Positions 5,723 to 24,284 of a DNA stretch of 54,166 bases are shown in pieces. The first letter of the stretch is position 1. Each line of letters begins with the position of its first letter. The DNA comes from a virus. Its lineage: Duplodnaviria; Heunggongvirae; Uroviricota; Caudoviricetes. The notes under the pieces were generated by a model, which ran no database searches, was not told the origin of the DNA, and worked only from the letters and a program-made list of their open reading frames with translations. The position numbers and the translations under genes are program-made. The stretch lies in IMG/VR virus record IMGVR_UViG_2872198387_000006. One strand, given 5' to 3'.

Positions 5723-8700
5723 TCAGCTGATACTGATACCTGCTGTGGATTTCTTCATCACAACAACCAGCAAATCGCTGATACTTGCTGTGGGATACCA
5801 GCCATTTACCAGCCATGCCGATACAGAAAACTCCAGCGTCATGTGACCGTGACCGGCAGGCATATCAATAACACCCGTATATATCAGCGTATTATCCAGG
5901 GTCGTTCGGTTATAAATTTCAGCACCGTTTTTCTTCACTATCAGGCGGCATGACGAATAAATATTGTTATTCTTCCGCTCATGTTTAGCACCGCGAAACG
6001 CCACCGCGGGAATAACAATTTGCCGATCAAACGGCTGATCGTCATAAACCCTGACGGTAATGGTCCCTGATGGCCACCTCTCCGGTGCCCGGGAGTCCCG
6101 TGGGAAAGGTTTGCCCACTGTTTTAACGAGATCGCCTTCAATCTGGTTCGCGGACAATTTTCCCAGAACCCGACAGTTCTTATTAATCGTGACGTTGTTG
6201 AGCGTCCCGGAGTTCGCGTTCACGTTACCGCTGATATCGGCATTTTTCGCCGTCAGCCGTCCGCCAGGTGTCAGGGAAAATGCCGGAGGATTACCGCCGC
6301 TGGTAATGGTCGGAGCCGTCAGGCGTTTCAGGAACACGTCGTTCATGAATATCTGATCGCCCTGACCAACAAACATCGGCTTTGTGTTGCCATTCGCAGG
6401 ATTAATCATCGCAATCCTGTCTGCCGCCAGCAGCACCTGACTCTGCATTCCTGCTGGCGTATTCTCAATACCGGCACCGATACCACGCAATATAAAGGCG
6501 TCCGTCCTTCATCTGTTGCAGCTTCACAGCCCACATGCTGTTCAGGTTATTATTTGTATCAACCTGAACTTTCTGTATCTGCTGGATTGCAGCACTCTGA
6601 TTTTCCAGTTTTTTATTGACGGTTTGCGTGATTTCATTGCTGACATTCGTAATGGACGTCCTGATTTCAGTCAGGTCCGGCGCAAGCTGACCGTTATCAA
6701 TCTGCGTCCACAACTCCTTGCCGAGATGCGTTTTATTGATCAACCCTTTATAAAAACTCAGATAACCTTCCGCATCATCGCTCGCCCGACCGACGGCCTC
6801 CACAAATGCCGATTTGCCAACGGTGTTCACACTGCGAACGTAAAAATAATAATCATGGCCCGGCCTGATATTGATACTGGCGGCTATCCAGTACAGCGCC
6901 GTGCCAAGATAGCGGGCGCTGGTTTCAACCTGCCTGATATCCGCAATCCGCTTTTCCGAAAACCAGAACTCAAACTGCACCGTCGGGTCATATACAGCCA
7001 GTTTCGGGACCACCGTTATCTGAAAATACCCCGGTATCAGTTCAATAGTGACAGGCGCTGCCGGTGCCGCAATCCGGAACGATACCGACGCCGGATCGCC
7101 CTGCTGCCCCCGGGCATTTACCGCCCGGACTGTCAGACTGTAATTCCCCAGCGCCAGCTGCCTGAAGCGGTATGTGGTTTCCGTCGTCCTGGCTGTGCTG
7201 ACCAGCCGCTCACTGCCGTCGTCCGCTGCCACGGTCAGGCGAAGCAGGAAGCTCACACCCTTCACCACCTTCGGCGTGTCCCATCGCGCCAGCACCTGAT
7301 ATTCCCCGCTGTCTGCGGTGACTTCGGCGGTCAGATGCTGCACCGCTGGCGGCGTGACACCATTCACCGTGCCGCGCCGGTCACCGTCAAAGTGTGCCCC
7401 GTTATCCACGATGGCCTCTTTTTCCGGCACATGCTGCACGGCGGTGATGGCATACGTGCCGTCGTCGTTCTCACGGATACTCACGCAGCGGAACAGGCGC
7501 TGGCGCAGCGTCGGCAGCTTCAGCCCCCACACGCTGTATTCTGCAACGCCGTCAGGAACCCGGCTCACTTTCACCTTCACGCCGTCGGTGACGGACTGAA
7601 CCTCCACGCTGACCGGATTGCCATTTCCGTCAACCAGGCTTATCAGCGTGGTACCGGAGGACGGCAGCGTGATTTCACGGTCGAGCGTCAGCGTCCGGGT
7701 CTGGCTGTTCACCGCCAGTACGCGACCACCGGTGCTGATACCGGCATAATCATCATCGCAGATTTCAATGACATCACCCGGTACATGGCGAAGCCCTTCT
7801 GCGCCGACGCTGAAGTCCACGGTCTGCGTTTCCAGCAGTTCCGTTTTAATCAGCCACAGCCCGGCGCGGTGCGCCTGTCCCCGGCTGGTACAGCCAAAGG
7901 CATCCATCTTCGTGACGTTACGACCGTAACGGACAATGGCCTGCGTGTCCTCCACAAGCTCTGTCGCCGTCTCATGACCGTTGTCCGGATCAATCCAGTT
8001 CACCTCAACGACATTATGGCGGTCCTTCAGGGCGCTGAAGCTGTAGCGGAACGGCGCGCCATCATCCGGCATCACCACATTACTGCGGTTATAGGTCCAC
8101 ACTTTATCCGACGGTCGGTCCTGCACGAACGTCAGCGTCTGCCCGTTCCATACCGGCATACAGCGCATCGCCGAGCAGAAATCACTGAGAACATCCCACG
8201 CCTTACGCTGTGTGGTCAGGTAAGCGTTACAGGTGATGCGCGGCTCCGTGCCGCCAAATCCGTCCGGCACTGACTGGTCGCAGTACTGGCCGATGACATA
8301 CAGCGCCCATTTGTCCACATCTGCCGCACCAAGACGTTTCCCCATGCCGTAGCGCGGATGAGTGAGCATGTCCCACAGACACCAGGCCATGTTGTTGCTG
8401 TATGCTGGCTTAAGCGTTCCGTCCCAGATACCGCTGTATTGCCGCGTCTGCGGGTTATAGTTCGACGGCACCTGCAGAATGCGCCCGCGAAGATGATAAT
8501 TGCGACTCACCTGCTGGTTACCGAACTGCTCTGAATCCACCTGCACGCCGACCAGCGCCGTGTTCGGGTAGCACTGTTTCACATCGATGATTTCGGTGTA
8601 CGACGACCAGAGCGTTTTGTTCTGCAGCTGGTCTGTGGTGCTGTCCGGTGTCATCCTGCGCATCCGGATATTAAACGGGCGCGGCGGCAGGTTACCCACC

Positions 8701-9203
8701 ACCACCGAGGCCAGATACTGCGAAGTGGTTTTGCCCTTAATGGTGATGTCTTTTTCCGTCACCCAGCCACCGTTACGCTGTATCTGAACCAGCAGGCGGA
8801 CTTCCGACGGATTCCGGTCCCCCTTTGAGGTGGTTTCCACCAGTGCCTGCACACCGAAGGTCAGGCGCAGACGATCAATGTTTGCCGACGTGATGGTCCG
8901 GGTGATCGGCGTGTCGTATTTCACTTCCGTACCCAGCACAGTCTCTGAGCCGGAAGATTCAAACCCCTCCGGCGGTGTCTGCTCCTGCTCGCCGGCGCGG
9001 AACACCACCGTAACACCGGAAAAGTTTGTCTTCCCCTCGCTATCCAGGACCGGCGTACCGTTCAGCAGCACGCTTTTTAATCCATCCACCGGACCGTCAA
9101 CCGGCCCTTCGCTGATGGCATCAATCACACTCAGCAACTGCGTGGATTTCAGGTTGTCCTTCGCTTCGCGCGGGGTATGCCCCTTACTGCTGCCTTTACC
9201 CAT
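5723..9203 (-). pseudogene. J: Host specificity protein J (tail tip fibre), split by a +1 frameshift near 6465-6495
   Basis: N-terminal ORF 6465-9203 (912 aa, [19 protein letters not shown]...) and C-terminal receptor-binding ORF 5723-6490 (255 aa) both align to remembered lambda J; the frames join at ...KDGRLYI / GIGAGIEN. Confidence 0.85.
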
Positions 9204-9263
9204 TCCTCACGCTCCATAAACGACAAAACCGCCCGCAGGCGGTTTCACATGAAACATTTTGCA

Positions 9264-22173: not shown

Positions 22174-22373
22174 AACCTCACTCCCAGCGGTCGGCGGCGT
22201 CGGGTCGTACCCAGAACCGACTCCGCATCGTTGATCGCACGGTTAAGCTCATTCAGGGACGCTGCCGTATATTCGATCCTGCGACCGTCTTTCTGTACCG
22301 ACACAACCCGTTTACCGGTTAATAAATCAAGGCGCGCCTGACGCAGCGCCTGCAGTTCAGCGACTGTAACCAT
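22170..22373 (-). CDS. W: Head-tail joining protein W
   Basis: 67 aa, recognised as lambda W. Confidence 0.8.
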   Translation of the reverse strand: MVTVAELQALRQARLDLLTGKRVVSVQKDGRRIEYTAASLNELNRAINDAESVLGTTRRRRPLGVRL

Positions 22374-24284
22374 TCACTCCTCCGGACAGCTTCGCTGCCA
22401 GTTCTTCAAGGGTCGGTTGTGCAGTTGCATCCTTGCGGGATGCCGCCAGCACAGCCAGATCAAGTTGCCAGCGTTGCACGGACACACGTAATGCCGCATA
22501 GGCATACACCAGGCAGTCCAGCGCTTCGTTACGCCGCTTTTTGTTATCCCACAACAGACGCATCTTTCCTTTTTCCCACTTTTCCACCAGTTCCTCCGCC
22601 ACCAGTTGTTGTGCCTCTGTCTGCGAAAAAATCTCCGGATTATCAGGAAAGCGGATGGCATACGATGTGGCCTCATTCACAGGGGTGGGATCGGCCTTCA
22701 TTCGGGCATAGAGAATTTCTTTTGCGGTATCCGTCCCCACCTCACACAGATACACACCCCGCTGATTGCGGGTTTTCGGCATGGTGATCACCGGCTTGCC
22801 ATAGACAGAGGCACCTTTTACCGGCAGTACCCGGAAAACACCGTGTTTTTTTGACCTCTGATACACGATTTCGCCATCGATCCCCCGATATCCCAGCAGA
22901 CACGGGAAATGGTCATTTCGGTACCGTCTGCATGGCGGTATTTTTTATTGATCGCCGCATCCACACGTAACAGCGTCTCTTCCTCATCAGGACGTCCCAT
23001 GATGATGATTTTATCCACCAGAAAGGCTTCCTCTCCCGGAGCCCACCCCCAGACATACATCTCAAAACGGTTTCGCTGCGAGTCAATGCCCGCCGTCAGA
23101 TAAACCACCCGGACAGGCACCGTTGCCGTGTAAGGCACAACCTTATCCATCAGTACCTGGTGATCGAGTTTTTCGCCCACGGCCTCTTCCCAGGTCTCGC
23201 CCAGCGTGGTGTTCACAAAAGTTTTCACGCCGTTGGGATCTTTCAGTGCATCCAGCCAGTCACAGACTATCTGTACCCAGGTGGTGAACGGACTGTACGC
23301 CGTCCATATATGGAAAGTGATGGAGCGCGGCGGCGGAATTTCATTACCCGAAGCACTGAAAAACGTCAGACCGTCACGCGTCCACATCCCGGTATTGTCA
23401 CAAATCCAGCGCCCCCCGGTCTGATCAAGTTCAGACTGACGGATCACGCAGCCATTATGTTCACACAGGTAATACACCGTTTCCGGTTTACCCTTCTCCC
23501 ATTTCAGGCCAAACGACGTCGCATCATCGCCAAACTTCAGATACTGCTCCTCCCCGCAATGAGGGCAAGGGACATAAAACCGCATGAAATGCGCAGATTC
23601 ATTCGCAGCTTTTTCAATCTGACAGGAGCCTTTAATTTTTGGCGTTGAACCGCGTATGGATTTTGGCCATACCGAACCTTCAATACGTTTATCGCCAAGC
23701 AGTGTTGGCGAACCTTCTTTTTCCACATCCGGTTCAAACGAGGAGAGTTCGTCATAGCAGACCACATCGACAGATTTTTCACGGTAGTTTTTGGCAGCAG
23801 CACCACCCAAACACCAGAACCCCACACCAGAGGAAAAACGCTTCAGTGTGAGCGTATTATCCCGGTGTTTCCGGCCCAGCCAGGGAGAAAGTTTTTTCAG
23901 GCAAGGAACATCACGAATTGTTGCTTCCACGTGAGACTTCATAAAATCTTCAGCAGCTGAGTCCGTCGGCTGAAAAAGAAGAGTGTTGCGGGATTTGTGC
24001 TCAATAAAATACCCGATCACACCAAGCACCATTTTTGTATAACCAACACGGGCAGATTTAATCAGGTTAACTGTACGAATCTCGTCATTGCCCATGCAGT
24101 TCATGATGGCGACCTGAAACGGCAGCGTTTTCCATTCCCCCTCACCGTATGACGATTCTTTAGGCAGGTAATAATTTTGATCGGCCCATTCTACAGCCGT
24201 CACCGGCAATACCCTGACCAGTGGCTGCAGTGCGATAGTGACTGCCACCATCATATTACTCAGTTGTTGTTCTGATATATTCAT
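22357..24284 (-). pseudogene. A: Terminase large subunit A, frameshifted near 22820-22870
   Basis: N-terminal ORF (start MNISEQQL at 24284) and C-terminal 169-aa ORF (22357-22866) align to remembered lambda A on either side of ...ISRVCWDIGG / ...YQRSKKHGVFRV. Confidence 0.8.

Follow-up and report, generated by a model that had tools for sequence, protein, structure and literature searches.

The broken structural genes of the lambda-like prophage in Shigella flexneri strain 98-3193 (CP026776.1) are best explained by a long-dead cryptic prophage that carries real lesions shared with other strains, together with four artefactual one-base contractions in C runs, of which that in FII is a possible exception. 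We put the probability of this reading at roughly 0.75. The window analysed was a stretch of 54,166 nucleotides, in which a preliminary description had reported serial frameshifts in J, H, FII, B (twice) and A, with systematic indel error in the assembly as the only alternative. Serial frameshifting as biology held for two, possibly three, of the six lesions, but not for the remaining C-run contractions, which were private among the 10-19 assemblies compared. Indel error in turn fitted the four C-run contractions, but it was not systematic, since the J lesion and the first B lesion are real. Judged by their distribution among assemblies, two frameshifts (the extra base in J and A5->A6 in B) are inherited mutations, perhaps with FII as a third, and those in H and A and the second in B are most likely consensus errors.

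The prophage adjoins ybhB/bio and has an ipaH effector gene aboard. Its structural genes form the collinear series Nu1-A-W-B-C-D-E-FI-FII-Z-U-V-G-T-H-M-L-K-I-J by Pfam and PGAP names. It shares with the lambda morphogenesis module the head and packaging families Phage_Nu1, GpA_ATPase/GpA_nuclease, gpW, Phage_portal_2, Peptidase_S49, HDPD, Phage_cap_E, Packaging_FI and Phage_attach, and the tail families Minor_tail_Z, Phage_tail_U, tail tube, TAC_2/Phage_tail_T, tape measure, Phage_min_tail, Phage_tail_L, NLPC_P60, Lambda_tail_I, the GpJ domains and Ail_Lom. H differs in length (912-1013 aa here, 853 aa in lambda), and the end of G reads CCG GAA AAG in place of the lambda slip site G GGA AAG. 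The T ORF (14287-14616) lies in the -1 frame of G (stop at 14625-14627), so that the G/GT tail assembly chaperone arrangement is present. The same order from Nu1 to J, with lom, tail-fibre genes and ipaH beyond, is found in the cryptic lambdoid S. flexneri prophages of the chromosomal ipaH regions, which are likewise rich in IS elements and pseudogenes and have lost packaging functions. We found nothing substantively different here, and both the J frameshift and a 303-bp deletion in H are shared with many strains. Genome analyses have described the S. flexneri prophages as all cryptic after massive gene loss (PMC5596473), and ipaH paralogs as flanked by prophages and pseudogenes (PMC9046306).

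As intact references we used E. coli VL46, in which every structural gene is annotated intact, and E. coli FDAARGOS_943. Compared with these, the minus-strand lambda-like module contained exactly six frame-breaking single-base indels, at window positions 6485 (J), 13968 (H), 17003 (FII), 20914 and 21180 (B) and 22882 (A). The genes concerned and their intact neighbours are:

5723..9203, minus strand: tail-tip gene J, 912 aa + 255 aa, extra base at 6485
9264..11578, minus strand: tail genes I, K, L and M, intact, matching both references without frame-breaking indels
11578..14315, minus strand: tape-measure gene H, 116 aa + 790 aa, C5->C4 at 13968-13971
14287..16806, minus strand: tail genes T, G, V, U and Z, intact
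16790..17166, minus strand: head-tail joining gene FII, 66 aa + 59 aa, C6->C5 at 17003-17007
17178..20591, minus strand: head genes FI, E, D and C, intact
20581..22173, minus strand: portal gene B, three pieces, A5->A6 at 21180-21185 and C5->C4 at 20914-20917
22357..24284, minus strand: large terminase gene A, 488 aa + 169 aa, C6->C5 at 22882-22886

The reported splitting of these genes into two or three ORFs was borne out by the indels and by repair in silico, as reversal of all six edits brought each gene back to one ORF as long as in the references (J 1159 aa, H 912, FII 125, B 530 and A 642). The approximate indel positions given earlier lay 5-60 bp from the exact sites. Restoration of only the four C runs gave the same gene state as in the relatives.

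The J lesion is an extra A in the plus strand (GATACC[A]CGC), outside any homopolymer by comparison with both references. It was present in 10/10 loci compared, among them draft WGS assemblies and genomes with two copies of the prophage, and position 6485 was identical throughout; the exact 912-aa J fragment occurred on 704 contigs. In B, A6 at 21180 was likewise found in 10/10 S. flexneri loci, and the exact 351-aa N-terminal fragment occurred on at least 1000 contigs, including those of strains 301, 2457T and 8401. We regard the J lesion and the first B lesion as real because each recurs in independent assemblies of S. flexneri, hundreds to thousands in number. On this distribution the J frameshift is a real mutation of a sub-lineage, and in B the A5->A6 change is a lineage-wide lesion and C5->C4 is private. 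The 303-bp deletion in H, which is in frame and has its junction near 13981-13988, was common to LR213452.1 and draft assemblies; in these H is intact at 912 aa, a form found on 995 contigs. Sanger-era genomes are among those that carry the B lesion, and draft assemblies among those that carry the J lesion.

In each of the other four lesions (H, FII, the second in B, and A) a C5 or C6 run is one C short, and the longer run was present at all four sites in all of the 10-19 covering assemblies compared, which included Sanger-era 2457T and draft assemblies. The closest relative, LR213452.1, was compared over 45.7 kb (window 1-32172 and 40051-53581) and differed by 3-4 SNPs and 4 indels, 4/4 of these indels being one C lost from a C5/C6 run. 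The H run was C5 in 19/19 covering loci, and the 116-aa H fragment was found in the source assembly only. A 785-aa C-terminal H fragment on three contigs (one annotated 'partial') was rejected as evidence of a frameshift, as it was judged to be cut by the contig end. At the second B site, the 10 loci with A6 at 21180 all have C5 at 20914, and C4 was shared only with CP026846, of the same accession series. Calls of a 137-aa C-terminal portal protein elsewhere were considered as a shared second B frameshift and rejected, as the DNA has C5 in all; exact look-up of the 137-aa middle fragment of B gave no match, and it was never called as a gene in the collection. The A run was C6 in 10/10 S. flexneri loci. 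The 488-aa A fragment was found in the source and CP026846 only, the 169-aa fragment also in the 1235-66 draft, and the intact forms of 642 and 636 aa on about 1000 contigs each.

The run in FII was C6 in 14/14 covering S. flexneri loci. The C5 form occurred as well in CP026810, CP026846, the 1235-66 draft, FDAARGOS_943 and six Logan contigs, on at least four haplotypes. One of the Logan-contig haplotypes matches that of CP026810, and the C5 allele at this haplotype looks real. What recurs in FII would be either an allele or an error, and the contraction may be real in 98-3193 because it is also present in contigs assembled from the public read sets of other strains.

The distribution of such contractions followed the accession series. 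Private one-base contractions of C/G runs numbered 14 in ~147 kb of CP0267xx-CP0268xx assemblies and 0 in ~341 kb of others, in a tally made by hand that left out CP178302; if events were proportional to the sequence compared, this split would arise by chance with a probability of ~0.3^14. CP026846, which is labelled S. boydii and is without the S. flexneri B +A lesion, has three of the window's four contractions. In CP026772 the host gene dcuC is frameshifted by a G5->G4 contraction, and the exact 257-aa N-terminal dcuC fragment that results was found on only two contigs, which match CP026772 and CP026792 in size. CP026765, CP026792 and CP026871, of the same series, had full-length runs at the sites that their loci cover.

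This pattern is that of long-read homopolymer errors: one-base contractions of G/C runs of at least 5 that split conserved genes, are private to one series, where they are enriched and reach a host gene, and are not seen in near-identical strains assembled as drafts or in the Sanger era. The lesions in H and A and the second in B lie in such runs and are absent from near-identical strains, and the same applies in part to FII, which differs in being contracted also in Logan contigs of other strains. The indels, their distribution among assemblies and the accession-series effect are direct observations; the platform for 98-3193, and hence the error mechanism, we infer from the BioProject. Other isolates of BioProject PRJNA218110 (CDC) were sequenced on a single PacBio RSII SMRT cell each and assembled with HGAP3 and Quiver (PMC7054288), and gene fragmentation by long-read errors is known (PMC12007338).

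We considered whether all six lesions might be real, with the four C-run contractions as recent, strain-specific slipped-strand mutations in neutral DNA, possibly through a mismatch-repair defect. Natural indels arise most commonly by slippage in homopolymers, G/C runs are natural hotspots, and selection would not act against further lesions in a prophage that is already non-functional. The FII C5 allele in Logan contigs of other strains (at least four haplotypes) is consistent with this, as is the confinement of the four events to the prophage, with none in ~26 kb of other compared sequence. The four contractions fall within 9 kb, affecting 4/26 of the C/G runs of at least 5 there and 0/20 elsewhere, a clustering that was not significant (Fisher p ~0.12 by our own estimate) and favours neither reading. 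The host genes within the window, ~4 kb of the 54 kb of the 98-3193 genome examined, showed no contraction. However, the four contractions are all of the same type and all polarised to the source assembly. The ratio of indels to substitutions is roughly 1:10 in wild-type E. coli in mutation-accumulation studies, far from the 4 indels to 3-4 SNPs seen here against the nearest relative. The same contractions appear in CP026846, of an unrelated lineage in the same series, and in none of ~1000 others, and private C/G contractions occur elsewhere in the series, including in dcuC. We therefore consider it unlikely that all six are real.

Improbable in our view is that the G/C-run contractions are real and that some of the runs slip recurrently. 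The G6 run of FII is the clearest candidate, being contracted on at least four haplotypes of S. flexneri and in E. coli resembling EIEC. If so, slippage recurring in FII would time and again disable head-tail joining in a prophage that carries ipaH, either as neutral decay at a hotspot or through selection that locks the prophage in place.

The opposite proposal, that every frameshift stems from assembly error and the structural genes are truly intact, fits the homopolymer errors that the assembly does seem to carry, but it is refuted by the shared lesions: the J insertion outside a homopolymer on 704 contigs including draft assemblies, B A6 in Sanger-era 301 and 2457T and at least 1000 contigs, and the deletion of Nu1 and cos by IS elements common to all S. 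flexneri loci examined. Programmed recoding by ribosomal or transcriptional slippage, by which the genes would still yield full-length products, has a precedent in the single programmed -1 frameshift of lambda-like tail modules (G/T), which the position of T here recalls, but we rejected it as highly implausible, as each gene is one uninterrupted ORF in close relatives at all six sites, and the sites, which are polymorphic among assemblies and have no conserved slippery heptamer, are short runs (C4-C6/A6) or, in one case, no repeat at all.

Beyond A, the packaging end of the module has been replaced by insertion sequences:

24256..24564, minus strand: small terminase gene Nu1, truncated, with the 3' part left and ~67 N-terminal codons gone
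24561..28012, no strand assigned: IS3-family insertion sequence nest, in place of the 5' end of Nu1, the region of cos and adjacent genes

Homology to both references ends at 24564, with the 5' 201 bp of Nu1 gone, and positions 22878-25352 of the VL46 reference had no match anywhere in the window. Self-BLAST of the window indicated repeated IS copies at 24561-28012, and transposase Pfam families were found at the equivalent loci. Gene calls in other S. flexneri include the same 107-aa remnant of Nu1, and the Nu1 5' end and upstream region had been lost to IS elements in all S. flexneri loci examined. There is thus no intact Nu1 with a cos upstream of it, and the earlier statement that cos is missing agrees with our results, as we infer its loss from the replacement by IS copies of the 201 bp and of all upstream sequence of the intact relative. 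The module is not lambda itself: even the intact relative has no lambda cosN 12-mer, and in the window the sole match (one mismatch) lies in dcuC. This motif search says nothing on the loss of cos, as the 12-mer is missing from the intact relative too.

The combination of intact terminase, portal and tail-tip genes with a packaging site, as in an inducible prophage, was not found. The B and J frameshifts and the loss of Nu1 and cos are common to many independent assemblies, which indicates that the prophage is dead and non-inducible however the C-run contractions are read. The expectation that it forms no infectious particles was accordingly supported, mainly by the lineage-shared lesions (loss of Nu1 and upstream sequence by IS elements, the extra A in portal gene B and the J frameshift).

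Under our preferred reading, of a cryptic prophage with shared lesions and C-run artefacts, the S. flexneri ancestor would already have carried the prophage in a dead state, with the Nu1 5' end and the upstream stretch expected to hold cos taken by IS elements and the portal gene B broken by a one-base expansion from A5 to A6. A one-base insertion would later have arisen in J within a sub-lineage. The four C5/C6 contractions in H, FII, B and A would most probably be long-read consensus under-calls of G/C homopolymers, with FII as a possibly real, recurrently slipping run. Both components, the biology and the artefact, are already known. In Shigella, where real pseudogenes are common, long-read assembly may add spurious frameshifts that resemble genome decay, and in this one prophage the apparent lesion count would have been inflated from two or three to six. 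Pseudogene counts and prophage-intactness scores derived from the CP0267xx-CP0268xx series should be checked with short-read data at G/C homopolymers. The conclusion on the biology is unchanged: the prophage is a fixed, non-inducible carrier of ipaH.

Two further genes in the window had been described as showing the same pattern:

35433..36386, minus strand: Rha-family regulator, in-frame stop (Q->stop)
39358..42114, plus strand: second-module large terminase (PBSX/Terminase_3 family), N-terminal part at 39358-40066, IS at 40050-41381, C-terminal part frameshifted

Rha does read as two ORFs, but the cause is an in-frame stop and not a frameshift, as a single-frame tblastn alignment spans 36275-35436 with the translation AIVDG*AVTSS, and the relative has Q at the stop. 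The second-module terminase is indeed broken, but mainly by the IS insertion at 40050-41381; a 7-bp deletion at 41823 adds a frameshift in its C-terminal part, judged against the intact gene of E. coli COL60J and against further S. flexneri loci.

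The window, which exact protein matches assign to CP026776.1 (GCA_002949695.1), from Shigella flexneri strain 98-3193, is a Shigella-type chromosome segment with the following features:

1-477, ybhB
1060-2823, ipaH effector gene
5056 (lom) to 24564 (truncated Nu1), minus strand, lambda-like structural module
~39.4-47.1 kb, plus strand, second head module, unrelated to the lambda-like one

Beyond Nu1, a group of IS copies comes first, then lambdoid genes for late functions and replication together with four tRNAs, then the second head module, after which follow a Mu-like transposase and the host genes pagP, dcuC and dpiA. 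Two E. coli genomes served as the closest intact references: VL46, whose structural genes are all annotated as intact, and FDAARGOS_943. When the window was aligned to both, and to relatives from S. flexneri, exactly six frame-breaking single-base indels were identified.

Frame-breaking single-base indels in the lambda-like module
J, 6485, extra A, outside any homopolymer
H, 13968-13971, C5 to C4
FII, 17003-17007, C6 to C5
B, 20914-20917, C5 to C4
B, 21180-21185, A5 to A6
A, 22882-22886, C6 to C5

Reversal of all six edits in silico gave products of 1159 aa (J), 912 aa (H), 125 aa (FII), 530 aa (B) and 642 aa (A). The preliminary description, which had reported J, H, FII, B (twice) and A as frameshifted, was therefore correct, as were its approximate coordinates.

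We searched for the truncated products as exact sequences among ~15 billion proteins, and compared the DNA with 30 loci from other assemblies, drawn from the regions of J and of both portal genes (lambda-like and second-module). The 912 aa J N-terminal fragment was present on 704 S. flexneri contigs, and the 351 aa B N-terminal fragment on at least 1000 contigs, including strains 301, 2457T, 8401 and 2002017. At the DNA level, the insertion in J and the A6 run in B were found in every covering S. flexneri locus, including the Sanger-era 2457T sequence for B and several draft WGS assemblies for J. Both are real, inherited lesions. Truncation of Nu1 by an IS was likewise common to S. flexneri relatives.

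The four C-run contractions were distributed differently from these lesions. The FII (66 aa), A (488 aa) and H (116 aa) N-terminal fragments were found on 11 contigs, 2 contigs and 1 contig respectively, the last being the source itself, and the longer run was present at each site in all 10-19 covering loci. Intact H and intact A each occur on ~1000 contigs. The nearest relative, LR213452.1, with intact H (912 aa), FII (125 aa) and A (642 aa), differs from the window by just 3-4 SNPs over 45.7 kb and by four indels, in each of which the window has one C fewer in a C5/C6 run. This indel:SNP ratio of ~1:1, with indels of a single type polarised to one assembly, points to consensus error, as does the abundance of intact H and intact A. 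In a hand count, private one-base contractions of C/G runs were confined to the CP0267xx-CP0268xx accession series (window 4, CP026810 6, CP026846 3, CP026772 1), with ~14 in 147 kb of the series versus 0 in ~341 kb covered by 21 loci of the remaining assemblies; CP178302, rich in indels, was excluded. CP026846, labelled S. boydii 59-2708, does not have the B +A lesion of S. flexneri but is contracted like the window at three of the four sites (FII, the second in B, and A), which again argues for error. So does the host gene dcuC of CP026772.1 (19519-20903 of the fetched locus; window 52290), where a G5 to G4 frameshift splits the gene into 213 + 257 aa; in the collection, the exact 257 aa N-fragment occurs on no more than two contigs, which match CP026772 and CP026792 in size, and the split is likely an assembly error in the same series.

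Strain 98-3193 is listed in a published supplementary table under the CDC project PRJNA218110. Other isolates of this project are described as sequenced on PacBio RSII (P6-C4), one SMRT cell each, and assembled with HGAP3 and Quiver, only some being Illumina-polished (PMC7054288). Fragmentation of genes by long-read indel errors is a known problem (PMC12007338). This too points to consensus error, and from the project's other isolates we infer a long-read mechanism for the contractions. All four lie in the lambda module (4/26 C/G runs of at least five versus 0/20 elsewhere), a difference that is not significant, and only ~4 kb of host DNA of this genome was covered by the comparison. The practical lesson is that the series would inflate apparent pseudogene counts at G/C homopolymers. 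In CP178302.1, a recent assembly, one-base deletions are numerous and scattered (window 51587-53500 and 23559-23687; 15 in 14 kb), with dcuC in three pieces, a pattern resembling another type of long-read error, that of unpolished sequence.

True mutation has its best case at FII. Its contraction also occurs outside the series, in the 1235-66 draft, in FDAARGOS_943 (labelled 'frameshifted' by PGAP) and in a set of six Logan contigs built from other strains' public reads. Because these sequences represent at least four haplotypes, one being that of CP026810, the G6/C6 run is recurrently affected, and some strains may have a truly broken FII. The window haplotype together with FII C5 was not found in any independent contig. 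All six Logan contigs with FII C5 stop exactly at window 16765, hinting that copies of the prophage have a boundary there, either of a repeat or of divergence.

Two further genes had been described as frameshifted. Rha does read as two ORFs, but the cause is an in-frame stop (Q to stop). The second-module terminase, of the PBSX/Terminase_3 family, is indeed broken, by an IS insertion (40050-41381) plus a 7-bp deletion at 41823 common to most S. flexneri. The second head module is an unrelated phage remnant joined to the first by IS-mediated rearrangement. It comprises a DUF1073 portal, Mu F-like protein, DUF2213 and DUF2184 major capsid, and ends abruptly at an IS copy at ~47126; the Mu-like transposase gene (48387-50021, 544 aa) adjoins dcuC.

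The reported absence of cos is supported indirectly: the window contains neither the 5'-most 201 bp of Nu1 nor any of the sequence that lies upstream in the intact relative. That relative also lacks the lambda cosN motif, which hence is no gauge of cos for this phage type. Given the loss of Nu1/cos, portal and tail tip, no infectious particles can be formed, whatever the state of the C-run sites. The portal and the packaging functions (Nu1/cos) were already lost in the ancestor of S. flexneri; loss of the tail tip followed in a sub-lineage. The prophage is cryptic and immobilised, a fixed chromosomal carrier of ipaH. S. flexneri prophages have been described as cryptic (PMC5596473), and ipaH paralogs as lying amid prophages and pseudogenes (PMC9046306). 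The frameshift pattern, known biology together with a probable known artefact, is therefore an ordinary finding.

H also carries a 303-bp in-frame deletion (~13981-13988), which is polymorphic: hundreds of contigs carry the 912 aa form and hundreds the 1013 aa form. Under the tape-measure rule, the deletion would shorten the tail of a functional phage. Contigs assembled from short reads tend to end at its junction. In LR213452.1, CP026871.1 and AMJY01, two prophages of one genome carry the same tail module (equivalent to window 1828-16374), one adjoining ybhB/bio and the other dinI/pncA/aspS. The copies are ~15 SNPs apart in 14.5 kb, both with the 912 aa H allele and an identical J frameshift, a state implying that prophage duplication or gene conversion postdates J breakage. 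Such a near-identical repeat could also worsen read mapping in long-read polishing. G ends (14625-14640) in CCG GAA AAG TCC TGA, with T in the -1 frame; where the G/T slip would be expected, the sequence is not the G GGA AAG heptamer of lambda.

The tRNA cluster (30599-30909), between the Q antiterminator and holin, comprises Gly-TCC, Thr-TGT, Arg-TCT and a CAT-anticodon tRNA, called Met here and annotated Ile in one relative. tRNA genes between Q and holin are found in many lambdoid phages. The window lacks a reverse transcriptase of group II intron type (RVT_1 + GIIM, 473 aa) that is inserted between Q and holin in an S. flexneri relative (L006, the locus from WACK01000005.1, 2321-3742).
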